Shown here: piece after piece, positions 355 through 44,275 of the stretch
How the letters are laid out: each line of letters begins with the position of its first letter
How positions within the stretch are numbered: position 1 is the stretch's first letter
Source of the DNA: an uncultured Planctomycetota bacterium
GTDB taxonomy: Bacteria; Planctomycetota; JAJSAM01; JAKLKS01
Assembly: GCA_964607145.1 (NCBI GenBank)
Contig: CAZSIX010000009.1
Span: 467-64,466 of the forward strand
DNA: 64,000 nucleotides
Direction: 5' to 3'
The notes under the pieces: generated by a model
The model's input: the letters and a program-made list of their open reading frames with translations, nothing else
Database searches by the model: none
Told to the model about the DNA's origin: nothing
Made by a program: the position numbers and the translations under genes

Positions 355-1527
355 TCAGTAGCGGGGAAACTCCGGATCGACCTCGTCCGCCCAGGCCTCC
401 GTCCCCCCGTCCATGGAGGCGACGCGGGTCAGCCCCCGTGACCTCAGGAAGTGCAGCGCCTCGAGGCTCCGGATTCCGCGGTGGCAGTAGAGGACCACGT
501 CGTGATCCGCGGGGACCTCCCTCCAGCGCGCGGCGAGGTCGCCCAGGGGGACGTTCCGGGCCGCGGGAAGCGCCCCCATGGCGAACTCCCAGGGCTCGCG
601 GACGTCCAGCAGGAGGGGCGGGTCCGCCTCCCCCATGCGCCGCCCCACCTCGGAGGCCGACACCGCCGCCCGGTGGGACCGTGGCCGGGGCGCCGCGGTG
701 GTCGCCGGGCCGGCCGCGGGAACGCCGCAGTAGCCCTCCAGGTCCCGGGGGGCGCGGAGGGTCGACCGGGGCCCGCAGGCCGGGCAGCCGGGGTCCTTGC
801 GCAGGCGGAGTTCCCGGAACGTCATCCCAAGGGCGTCGTAGACCAGCAGCCGGCCCTGGAGCAGTTCCCCGGCCCCCACCAGGTGCTTCACGACCTCCGT
901 GGCCTGCAGGCAACCGACCACGCCGGGGAGCGCCCCCAGGACGCCGGCCTCCGCGCAGGAGGGAACCAGGCCCGGCGGCGGCGCCTCCGGGTGGAGGCAG
1001 CGGTAGCACGGTCCCGTGCGGGCGTCGAACCAGGACACCTGCCCCTCGAACCGGTAGATGCTCCCGTGGGCATTGGGCTTCCCGAGGAGGACGCAGGCAT
1101 CGCTGACGACGTACCGCGTGGGGAAGTTGTCGCTCCCGTCGGCGACGACGTCCCCGCGGCGGAGGAGTTCCATGGCGTTCGCCGCGGTCACGCGGACATC
1201 GTGGGCCTCGACCTCCACCTCCGGGTTCAGCGCCCGGACCCGCTCCGCCGCCGCCTCGACCTTCGGGCGCCCCACGTCGGCGGAGGAGAAGAGCACCTGT
1301 CGGTGCAGGTTGGAGGCGTCGACCCGGTCCCCGTCCAGGAGCACGAGGCGGCCCACGCCGGCGGCCGCGAGGTAGAGCGCGAGGGGGCTGCCGAGCCCGC
1401 CGGCGCCCACCAGCACGACGGTGGCCTCCCGGAGGCGCCGCTGACCCTCGACGCCGACTTCGGGGAGGGAGATCTGGCGCGCGTAGCGCTGCAGCGACTC
1501 GGGCGGGAGGGGGCGCGGGTCGGTCAT
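355..1527 (-). CDS. moeB: MoeB/ThiF-family adenylyltransferase fused to a C-terminal rhodanese domain (MoeZ-like), 390 aa
   Basis: RYARQISLPEVGVEGQRRL, GAGGLGS nucleotide-binding loop, SNLHRQ, two CxxC motifs (CYRC, CPAC), and rhodanese DVREPWE ... LYCHRGIRS. Start trimmed to MTDPRP (ATG 1527). Confidence 0.92.
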   Translation of the reverse strand: MTDPRPLPPESLQRYARQISLPEVGVEGQRRLREATVVLVGAGGLGSPLALYLAAAGVGRLVLLDGDRVDASNLHRQVLFSSADVGRPKVEAAAERVRALNPEVEVEAHDVRVTAANAMELLRRGDVVADGSDNFPTRYVVSDACVLLGKPNAHGSIYRFEGQVSWFDARTGPCYRCLHPEAPPPGLVPSCAEAGVLGALPGVVGCLQATEVVKHLVGAGELLQGRLLVYDALGMTFRELRLRKDPGCPACGPRSTLRAPRDLEGYCGVPAAGPATTAAPRPRSHRAAVSASEVGRRMGEADPPLLLDVREPWEFAMGALPAARNVPLGDLAARWREVPADHDVVLYCHRGIRSLEALHFLRSRGLTRVASMDGGTEAWADEVDPEFPRY

Positions 1528-1596
1528 GGAGCCGGGGTGGCCCGCATGATAGCGCGGCGCCGTCGCCGGGGCGCGGCGCCGGTGTAGGATGCCGCG

Positions 1597-2965: not shown

Positions 2966-3105
2966 CGTTGCGGAGACGCGACGGCCCGGAGACAAGGGGA
3001 GAAGTGGCGGCGTTCCCGGGGCGACCGGGATGGACAGGACAGGCCCGGTGGCCCCGGGTGGGACAATGGCGCCCGGCAAGACCGGGCCATGAAGGAGGGT
3101 GTGCA

Positions 3106-42489: not shown

Positions 42490-42951
42490 CTACCGGGCCG
42501 GTGGCGACCCCCGGAAACGGACGTCCTCGATGCCGGCCCCCACGAACAGGTCCATGGCGTGGACGACATCGCCGTGCCGGACCGTCGGCGTCGCGTCGAT
42601 CTCGCCGATCACGCCCGAGTCGGCGGCCCGGATGGCGCGCAGCCGGGAGGCGACGCGATCCCATGCGGCGCCCCCCTCGGCGATGGCGCCCATGGGGGTC
42701 CCTCCCAGCGAGATCCGGGTCTCGCCGCCCTCGACCCGGGCCAGCCGCAGTCGGGCGCGGGGGCGGACGTCGGGGGGCTGCACCCGTTCCGCGCTCCCCT
42801 CGTCCGGGAGCCGCGACTCGATCTTCATGTCGAGGGTGCGGAACTTCATGGAGCAGAGGAACACGATGATCAACTGGAACGTCACGTCGATCATGGGGGT
42901 CATGTTGAGGCGGGGACGGGCCTGCGCCGCTTCGTCCGCGGGACGACGCAC
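42490..42951 (-). CDS. ExbD/TolR-family protein (third copy; start approximate)
   Basis: NMTPMIDVTFQLIIVF with the conserved Asp, and EIDATPTVRHGDVVHAMD. Confidence 0.85.
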   Translation of the reverse strand: MRRPADEAAQARPRLNMTPMIDVTFQLIIVFLCSMKFRTLDMKIESRLPDEGSAERVQPPDVRPRARLRLARVEGGETRISLGGTPMGAIAEGGAAWDRVASRLRAIRAADSGVIGEIDATPTVRHGDVVHAMDLFVGAGIEDVRFRGSPPAR

Positions 42952-43047: not shown

Positions 43048-43085
43048 GCGGGAATCGAAACGGGGTCTCCCCGAGGGAGACCCCG
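43048..43085 (-). terminator. Intrinsic terminator after the exbB-exbD-exbD operon
   Basis: 11-bp stem CGGGGTCTCCC / GGGAGACCCCG, followed on the minus strand by TTTCGATTCCCGC. Confidence 0.7.
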
Positions 43086-43103
43086 CCGGTCCGTCTCCGC
43101 TTA

Positions 43104-43264
43104 GGGCCCTGGCCGAAATTACTGCGTCACACTGAGGCCGAGCGAGGAAGCCCAGGGCAAGGCGCACCGACGAAGGTGACCCGAATGAGGGTCACAGAGG
43201 AGGTGCAACGCGGCCATGGGCTTCCGGAGCCGGCCGGATGTAGCAGTAGTTTTGGTCAGGGTCC
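43104..43264. mobile_element. 161-bp MITE-like non-autonomous element (IS5/PIF-Harbinger-like signature)
   Basis: 22-bp terminal inverted repeats, 18/22 identical (GGGCCCTGGCCGAAATTACTGC vs GGACCCTGACCAAAACTACTGC). TTA direct repeats at 43101-43103 and 43265-43267. Reconstructed empty site CCGC-TTA-GCGG. Confidence 0.72.
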
Positions 43265-43771
43265 TTAGCGGGGCGGCGCGGCCCCGAACTGGCCCGTCTC
43301 GTTGAGGGGAGTCCCCTTGAAGACCACGTTCTGCATCTTCGCGGCGAGGAAGGAGTCCAGCGCCTTCATGACGTGGCCGTGGGGGACGTCGGGCTGGGCG
43401 TCGATCTCCCCCTTGATGTTGGGGTCCTTCTGGTGGAGGTCGGAGATGCGCGCCGCCAAGGTCTTCCAGATGGTCTCGCCGGTGGCCGTGCTGCCGAGGC
43501 GGTTGTCGAGGACGATGACCTGCGTGTCCTTGGCGTTCTTGTCCCACTTGAGGCGCACGACGAGTTTCGTCTCCACCTCGGAGGTCGGGTTCGCCGCGGA
43601 GAGGCCGACGTCCTTGGGGAGGAAGGCCTCGATCTTCATGTCCAGGGTGCGGAACTTCATGGAGCAGAGGAACACGATGATCAACTGGAACGTCACGTCG
43701 ATCATCGGCGTCATGTTCACCGTGGTCCGCGCGGCCTTGGCGGGGTCGTCGAACTCCTTCTTCTTGGCCAT
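43265..43771 (-). CDS. ExbD/TolR-family protein (second copy), 168 aa
   Basis: NMTPMIDVTFQLIIVF and EIDAQPDVPHGHVMKALD. Confidence 0.92.
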   Translation of the reverse strand: MAKKKEFDDPAKAARTTVNMTPMIDVTFQLIIVFLCSMKFRTLDMKIEAFLPKDVGLSAANPTSEVETKLVVRLKWDKNAKDTQVIVLDNRLGSTATGETIWKTLAARISDLHQKDPNIKGEIDAQPDVPHGHVMKALDSFLAAKMQNVVFKGTPLNETGQFGAAPPR

Positions 43772-43783
43772 GGTTCCGTCCTC

Positions 43784-44275
43784 TCAGTTGCTGCCCGACT
43801 TGCCGGCCTTGTTGGGGTCTTCCGTGGCGAACTGCAACTTGTAGATCTTGATGTTCGGGTCCGCGCAGACCTGCATCACCCACTGTACGTCCTGCCACCG
43901 GGCGTCCTTGTCGGCGCGGATGAGCACGAACAGTTCCGAGGCGTTGGGGGGCTCCGGCTCCTTGTACTTCAGCGCCAGGGGGGTGATGAACTGGGTGAAG
44001 CCGCGGAGGTCGTACTCCTTGCCCTTGACCTTGAGGCGGGGAGGCCCGCCGTTCTTCCCGGCGATGAGGTTCACGATGACGCGGTGCTGCTCCCCCTGCC
44101 CCTTGTCCTCCTGGGCGTTCGCGGCGGGGGGCAGCTTGAGTTCCTCGATCTCCTTGCGGCTGAGGTCATTGGCCAGCATGAGGAAGATGATCAACTGGAA
44201 GACGACGTCGATCATCGGCGTCATGTTCATCTCGAGATCGCTGGTGTCGTTCTCGACGGGCTGGTTGGCGGCCAT
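43784..44275 (-). CDS. ExbD/TolR-family protein (first copy), 163 aa
   Basis: NMTPMIDVVFQLIIFLM, LKLPPA and LIRADKDARWQDVQWVM. Confidence 0.93.
   Translation of the reverse strand: MAANQPVENDTSDLEMNMTPMIDVVFQLIIFLMLANDLSRKEIEELKLPPAANAQEDKGQGEQHRVIVNLIAGKNGGPPRLKVKGKEYDLRGFTQFITPLALKYKEPEPPNASELFVLIRADKDARWQDVQWVMQVCADPNIKIYKLQFATEDPNKAGKSGSN

Follow-up and report, generated by a model that had tools for sequence, protein, structure and literature searches.

A multi-copy MITE with a covarying hairpin at the stop codon of an exbD gene in an uncultured planctomycete

The element at the exbD stop codon

What is the 161-bp segment that lies directly against the stop codon of an exbD gene in this genome, and how could it have come to be there without altering the protein? 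Within the window, by which we mean the whole 64-kb stretch of DNA analysed, the segment as read from the sequence spans positions 43104–43264. It is bounded by a left terminal inverted repeat (TIR) at 43104–43125 on the plus strand (GGGCCCTGGCCGAAATTACTGC) and by a right one at 43243–43264 on the minus strand (reverse complement GGACCCTGACCAAAACTACTGC), which extend to the very tips of the element and are identical at 18 of 22 positions; all four mismatches between them are G:T wobbles on the plus strand. TTA stands on either side, at 43101–43103 as the left copy of a 3-bp target-site duplication, by direct reading, and at 43265–43267 as the right copy, which on the minus strand is the TAA stop of the ORF 43265..43771. 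This minus-strand ORF is exbD (PF02472), the second of three ExbD genes in a cluster with the order exbB-exbD-exbD-exbD-sulfatase. When the empty site is rebuilt, it reads CCGC-TTA-GCGG and forms a dyad. The element has a GC content of 64.6% as compared with 73.6% for the window, where only 13 TTA/TAA sites occur in 64 kb, and it contains no real ORF, the spurious ones merely crossing it. The initial annotation had described a MITE-like element with precisely these features, namely 161 bp bounded by 22-bp inverted repeats, a TTA on both sides, a right TTA doubling as the exbD stop and a symmetric empty site, and our re-examination upheld each of them.

The inverted ends of the element are by themselves not exceptional, as inverted repeats matching at 18 or more of 22 positions at a spacing of 120–220 bp were found 20 times in the real window versus 0–7 times in shuffled versions. 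The element's pair is nevertheless the only one of these 20 with identical 3-nt flanks, a case that arose in none of ten shuffles. No second copy was found within the window. A non-coding, AT-richer patch at 2889–2913 holds two of the window's 13 TWA sites (TTA at 2889 and TAA at 2911).

Comparison with orthologous loci shows how the element relates to the operon. The nearest ExbD relative of the window protein is 74% identical to it, and the exbB-exbD gene order is also present in the syntenic relatives L039–L042. In these orthologous operons (L039/L040 and L041/L042, with ExbD identities of 62–74%) the element is missing. The window ExbD ends in ...GQFGAAPPR, exactly where its homologues end (...GQFGPQR, ...GEFGAAPPPK), and because homologous ExbD proteins terminate at the same place, the position of the stop codon is ancestral. 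What differs is the sequence beyond it: in both pairs of orthologues the exbD stop is followed within 8–26 nt by a GC-rich hairpin with a T(T/C)TCGATT tail, whereas in the window the equivalent hairpin, at 43061–43085 on the minus strand (CGGGGTCTCCC-tcg-GGGAGACCCCG, then the tail TTTCGATT), is separated from the stop by 164 bp. Since the same hairpin and tail lie near the stop in the orthologues and 164 bp away in the window, the element is an insertion between stop codon and terminator that left ExbD unchanged. The terminator-like structure at 43061–43085 is what originally lay 3' of the exbD stop.

Several other observations were made in the same cluster. The hairpin with its T(T/C)TCGATT tail lies between the second and third exbD genes both in the window (43061–43085, minus strand) and in every orthologous operon, as in L039 (~2286–2325) and L041 (~3013–3053), and it may represent a conserved attenuator or terminator inside the operon. 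The paralogue downstream of it in the window (42490..42951, minus strand; PF02472, E = 3e-13) has a likely GTG start at 42951, with GGAGG before the start. In the closest orthologue, L039, the corresponding spacer (2262–2650) measures 384 nt and carries GGTGCAGGT-like repeats; just after the exbD stop it also contains a 9-mer, ACCCTGACC, that is identical to part of the right end of the MITE, a match that may go back to an old insertion or be due to chance.

Copy number, relatives and target sites

Three metagenome runs from two studies, X1 and X2 (sand) and X3 (bioreactor), are near-identical to the region, and in four sludge runs (X4–X7) only ~39% of the region's 31-mers are present, suggesting a related strain. 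In X1, depth rose from ~25 in the flanks to 350–480 over the element, and in X3 from ~20 to 277–345, so that the ratio of element to flank was ~14–19 in two unrelated studies. The high-depth unitigs into which the copies collapsed run from 43103 to 43265, the outer bases that TTA and TAA have in common. Contigs in which a copy of the element is joined to other flanks, one of them 12.5 kb long, run at 21–25x, equal to the depth of the source genome. Both junctions of the exbD copy are crossed by flank-depth contigs of the independent runs X1 and X3, and the insertion at exbD is therefore real rather than an artefact of assembly. In the sludge runs, contigs of the related strain end short of both exbD junctions, and copies of the element were found at yet other loci. 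Flanks taken from sequencing runs are 30 nt each and unlinked. The metagenome runs bear on the further copies that the initial annotation had proposed to look for in the source genome: the element has 14–19 times the depth of its flanks, and other copies lie in other flanks.

Two depth anomalies of the exbD cluster deserve separate mention. In all metagenomes, depth spikes were seen at 42848–42911, 43680–43743 and 44192–44255, which correspond to the conserved NMTPMIDV-coding N-terminal stretch in each of the three exbD paralogues; the spikes stem from contigs of other organisms that cross-map there and not from changes in copy number. Some contigs of X1 and X3, with roughly half the depth seen locally, connect 42514 directly with 44177, omitting 1662 bp of the exbD cluster, with only 22 nt on their shorter side; either a variant with a deletion between exbD paralogues or a cross-match may account for this junction.

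Relatives of the element were sought by scanning metagenomes with a degenerate two-end pattern, which yielded 21 loci, with the qualification that a pattern built from the ends biases what is detectable. Of these loci eleven were true relatives, 156–160 bp in length (L008 and L009 being one locus), and ten, such as L010, which lies inside a histidine kinase gene, were chance matches in coding DNA. L018, which has the ends and no TWA and sits at the end of a contig, was excluded. The family end consensus, GGRCCCTGRYCRAAAT, is kept in ten other copies, and the family profile recovered the window element with an nhmmer E-value of 2e-27.

The flanks of the copies are informative about target choice. 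Among ten independent copies, the window's included, seven have perfect flanks, either TTA/TTA (window, L003, L008/9, L016 and L019) or TAA/TAA (L005 and L020), and the remainder are off by one or two bases: TAA/TAG in L012, TCA/TTA in L021 and CAA/TAC in L001. TCA recurs in three flanks, on the left in X1 and L021 and on the right in X4–6. Because the middle base agrees between the two sides, be it A or T, the repeat is a genuine 3-bp duplication rather than a fixed motif in the flanks. With all copies turned the same way, the right duplication is followed by G in nine of ten copies and the left one is preceded by C in five of nine, and thus the preferred target is C-TWA-G, in agreement with the dyad recognised in the initial annotation.

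The family is present in at least two bacterial phyla, as the contig of L021, judged by its alanyl-tRNA synthetase, belongs to the Acidobacteriota (Vicinamibacterales). That of L012 is probably from the Pseudomonadota, an assignment that its CusA-like gene supports weakly. Other searches gave no further members. Among species-representative genomes, a set without the source species, neither the degenerate-end scan nor a scan with an internal 20-mer returned a match; the same was true of the internal 20-mer in the metagenome scan, of BLAST searches of plasmids with two family members and of the two-end pattern among viral contigs, where 17 single-end matches were due to chance. No Rfam covariance model matched the window copy or five other copies at E <= 1, and full-text literature searches with end and core sequences returned unrelated primers or nothing. 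A comparison of filled and empty sites by means of the gene flanking L012 found no homologues above 80% identity.

Many copies, like that at exbD, sit on stop codons. The duplication is the TAA stop of a gene running into the element in L012 (CusA-like, 981 aa), L019 (phosphotransferase-like) and L021 (PilT-like), while in L005 the stop is TAG, made from the TA of the duplication and the first G of the element, an arrangement that L003 may share. Among the 30-nt flanks from X1 and X4–7, GC3-rich frames come to a stop at the element, as in ...GTG TAA/GGG, ...CCG TAA/GGACT and ...GAC GGT TAG/GG (the slash separating the stop from the bases that follow it), and further flanks have ...GCG CCG TAA on the other strand or, in one instance, TCA, which is TGA on the other strand. 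The copies in L016 and L020 clearly lie between genes. In the window itself, ~3–4 of the ten TWA sites outside the element, or about a third, are stop codons of plausible genes. Target availability, together with selection against insertions within genes, is enough to explain this pattern, and the earlier suggestion that the rare TAA stops would be preferred and harmless targets is a reasonable one, given the many copies on stops and the scarcity of TTA/TAA in the window. Genes ending on the duplication are sense to the plus orientation of the element in ~8–11 cases versus antisense in 3–5, which are small counts, and the window copy is one of the antisense cases. The family shows how an element that targets TWA persists where GC content is very high, by landing on stop codons and rebuilding them.

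A strand-specific hairpin around a conserved core

When folded, the plus strand of the window element, which is both the family's plus orientation and its best-folding strand, reached -108 kcal/mol (z = -11.7), as against -85 kcal/mol (z = -8.5) for the minus strand, and the whole element is predicted to form one long hairpin, far beyond chance. The alignment of ten copies is in keeping with this model. In it, 94.6% of cells are paired as compared with 32–42% when partners are slid by 1–3 columns, and compensatory double changes affect 26 of 54 pairs versus 7–9 in the slid controls. Across the family, G:T cells outnumber A:C cells by 36 to 11, for which the naive binomial p of 3e-4 is an upper bound on significance because the copies are related. 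The plus orientation folded better in each of 11 full-length copies and in 17 of 18 core segments. The initial annotation had taken covarying structure as an argument for an ncRNA and against a MITE, a premise that was not borne out: the element is at once mobile and a strand-specific covarying hairpin. At the exbD locus, where the copy is antisense to exbD, the hairpin that would be co-transcribed is that of the weaker strand and the terminator is intact; hence the local effect is probably neutral.

At the centre of the hairpin lies a core that is more conserved than the ends of the element. It is near-invariant, with GC-AA-GGCG-CG in the 5' arm and CG-(C)AA-CGCC-GC in the 3' arm, and in the folded form has two A-rich bulges on opposite strands with a 4-bp GGCG/CGCC helix between them. 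The core is situated midway, 54 and 53 nt from the two ends, and its halves are 50–51 nt apart (54 nt in the window), enclosing a variable apical stem-loop. In the window the left half, GGCAAGGCGC (GC-AA-GGCG-C, with AA bulged), occupies 43156–43165 on the plus strand and is defined by invariant columns in alignments A1 and A2. The apical stem-loop, GGTGACCC-GAATGA-GGGTCAC, follows at 43175–43195 (plus strand) in the predicted fold, its stem covarying between subfamilies, and the right half, GCAACGCGGCC (G-CAA-CGC.-GCC, with CAA bulged), lies at 43205–43215 on the same strand, with invariant columns A72, A73, C74 and G75 in A2 and a match to the core model R1 of 50.3 bits (E = 2.5e-8).

The same core was found outside the family. 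In L016, 190 bp from the TWA-type copy, a second MITE-like element (1396–1552, minus strand) has the core between ends that read CAGCCCRTGGTGAAAGTC and are flanked by CTAG, or possibly by TA, which suggests that the core has been paired with the ends of a different type of transposon. Viral contigs gave more than 119 matches to the core pattern, mostly by chance; among them, the covariance model R1 and manual folding singled out about six independent hairpins that keep the register of the core and differ in their outer stems. Because R1 scores of its training sequences are high by construction, the independent evidence is that register and spacing are identical within stems that are long and perfectly paired. 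One Mu-like prophage carries two head-to-head core hairpins between its lysis genes and its gp27-like and terminase genes. Rfam gave no match to the viral core hairpins at E <= 0.1. Three matches in viral contigs to the end of the second L016 element proved to have neither core nor transposase and were set aside.

Some details of the viral loci may be recorded here. Loci L066 (3151–3353) and L071 (5225–5500), which belong to one viral contig, show the two head-to-head core hairpins of a Mu-like prophage inside a composite palindrome of ~270 bp, of which the 31-bp outer arms include the RBS and ATG of the downstream gene; L071 also has an Rfam match to sRNA-Xcc1 (1059–1143, minus strand, 62 bits). 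In the homologous phage loci L053 (2308–2402) and L138 (1582–1677), which share their flanks, the core hairpin stands in the same place with very different outer stems, which suggests either fast compensatory change or separate insertions.

A core that is common to phyla, end types and prophages is not predicted for a simple deletion derivative of an insertion sequence. It is conceivable, although we hold the idea as tentative and rather doubtful, that the unit under selection is a central module of ~95 nt, a protein-binding or processing signal that acts in single-stranded form, as RNA or ssDNA. Such a module would be carried by at least two types of ends (TWA and CTAG/TA) as well as by Mu-like prophages, in at least Planctomycetota and Acidobacteriota and probably Pseudomonadota, and would be a widespread, undescribed mobile motif and not an ordinary IS deletion derivative. 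The conserved core may point to a signal, in RNA or ssDNA, that mobile DNA carries along and that has so far gone undescribed.

Origin of the element and comparison with known systems

Taken together, copy number, ends, duplications, varied contexts and absence from orthologues leave a mobile non-autonomous DNA transposon as the only reading that fits, and the identification of the element as a MITE, first proposed in the initial annotation, is strongly supported by its multi-copy, TWA-duplicating relatives and by the orthologous operons in which it is lacking. The proposed link to IS5/PIF-Harbinger elements stood in part: the TWA duplication and the GG ends, the features from which we infer the assignment, agree with it, while no insertion sequence with matching ends came to light. 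Neither an autonomous IS nor a transposase with such ends was found among the window ORFs examined, at the loci retrieved or by searching genomes, metagenomes, viral contigs and plasmids; the remark that the window holds no transposase agrees with its mid-sized ORFs, a check that was not exhaustive.

The explanation that we consider very probable as a whole, comprising a MITE copy, movement of the IS5/PIF-Harbinger type, targeting of stop codons and an RNA role in 3' UTRs, would run as follows. A transposase encoded elsewhere in the genome would recognise the GGRCCCTGRYCRAAAT ends and make cuts staggered by 3 nt at T-W-A, with a preference for C-TWA-G, and repair of the gaps would duplicate TWA. 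Duplication of TWA is known for PIF/Harbinger elements (PMC4482050), and the IS5-family element IS1237 duplicates TTA/TAA in high-GC Leifsonia (PMC2516522). In DNA of 65–74% GC, where TWA is rare, a large share of the available sites are TAA stops or TA followed by G. ExbD is unchanged because the duplication rebuilds its stop codon, and the element pushed 164 bp between this stop and the conserved terminator-like hairpin of the operon. The hairpin would then be maintained on one strand for an RNA-level role when co-transcribed in a 3' UTR, where, as a stabilising or processing stem-loop like those of ERIC, REP or bcr1, it would make copies tolerated or useful. MITEs at gene 3' ends are co-transcribed and can affect mRNA stability, and bcr1 shows compensatory changes at the RNA level (PMC3184786). 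By this analogy an RNA-level role is the likeliest reason for the hairpin; it is also the least certain step of the scheme, and a hairpin devoid of function is possible. Against the scheme stand the orientation of copies relative to genes, which is biased towards sense and yet not exclusively so, and the fact that DDE transposition explains neither why the core is more conserved than the ends nor why the same core occurs with other ends in L016.

A serious rival, somewhat unlikely in our judgement, also takes the element to be a MITE and has the hairpin and core serve transposition itself, either because folded single-stranded DNA joins the ends or because the core binds the transposase or an accessory protein, with no RNA or host function involved. 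The exactly central position of the core is in its favour, as are the presence of copies in both orientations relative to genes, that of the window being antisense, and the occurrence of the same core in intergenic prophage DNA; moreover, the excess of G:T over A:C suits a folded single strand of DNA as well as it suits RNA. A cruciform in double-stranded DNA, however, would select both strands equally and so produce no asymmetry between G:T and A:C, and a core that recurs between other ends, flanked by CTAG, is not bound to a single transposase. No use of single-stranded hairpins is known for DDE transposases of the IS5 type, which likewise counts against such a role. If single-stranded DNA were instead moved by an HUH (Y1) transposase that recognises hairpins, the element would be an IS200/IS605 palindrome-associated element or a REPIN, and its hairpin over the full length, strand-specific wobble pairing and conserved bulged bases in the stem would all find an explanation. 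Elements of that kind, however, have subterminal hairpins and insert 3' of a fixed tetra- or pentanucleotide with no target duplication, whereas here the duplication is a true one with W matching in seven of ten copies, the inverted repeats reach the very tips and no TnpA or RAYT gene was seen, and we regard this origin as very unlikely.

Readings that dispense with transposition fare worse still. Strong covariation and a conserved core would be expected of a resident structured ncRNA or regulatory hairpin of the exbBD operon, yet the depth-implied 14–19 copies with different flanks, the orthologous operons that lack the element, the copies beside unrelated genes in other phyla, the target duplications and the failure to match Rfam make an immobile element highly improbable. 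A site for site-specific recombination, attC-like as in integrons or of another kind, seems to us just as improbable. The element does resemble such a site in being a hairpin that has extrahelical bases and follows a stop codon, and one phage contig with core hairpins also has a match to sRNA-Xcc1, a family found in integron cassettes; against this, the R'' (RYYYAAC) and R' (GTTRRRY) boxes are missing in the required arrangement, the ends read GGRCCC...GGGYCC, the TWA flanks are direct repeats, and the copies are scattered, with no cassette array. The defining motifs of hammerhead and twister ribozymes, of K-turns, of ssoA-type origins and of sigma-54 promoters were absent as well.

The TWA-duplicating MITE that we favour belongs to an apparently undescribed family, for which a full-text literature search, Rfam and a plasmid collection gave no counterpart. 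Beyond a handful of model groups, the catalogue of bacterial MITEs is poor; the present family is seen in uncultured Planctomycetota and Acidobacteriota. Such elements also have practical consequences, since they enlarge intergenic spacers, break short-read assemblies at the repeat and create spurious ORFs. TWA-duplicating MITEs of the IS5/PIF-Harbinger superfamily are called Tourist-like, and Tourist MITEs (PIF/Harbinger - IS5) are indeed close in form: they share the 3-bp TWA duplication (PMC4482050), ends of the type GG(G/R)CC.TG, a length of ~150 bp, the lack of an ORF, the hairpin and the multi-copy state. Tourist elements are eukaryotic, however, whereas the present element is bacterial and no partner transposase was identified here, and it further differs from them in a core that is more conserved than its ends and is common to elements with other ends. 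In sequence it has nothing in common with them.

Among bacterial elements, IS1237 (ISLxx6) of Leifsonia xyli, an IS427/IS1031-like member of the IS5 family, produces the same TTA (TAA) duplication at a 3-nt target in a high-GC genome (PMC2516522); it is, however, an autonomous IS of 899 bp with ends (GAGGTGGTTTCAGTAGTCG) dissimilar to GGRCCCTGRYCRAAAT, and is on this evidence not a candidate parent. ERIC and Correia elements are likewise small palindromic MITEs with TA-containing duplications, frequently located at gene 3' ends, where they are transcribed together with the gene and influence the processing and stability of the mRNA (PMC3184786), although they have no sequence similarity to the present family, duplicate TA rather than TWA and come from enterobacteria and Neisseria. 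Another mobile repeat, of ~155 bp with short direct repeats and, like ERIC, a selected hairpin, is bcr1 of the Bacillus cereus group; yet bcr1 has 5-bp direct repeats and an unrelated sequence and is confined to one genus group, whereas the family described here spans phyla and carries a fixed double-bulge core.
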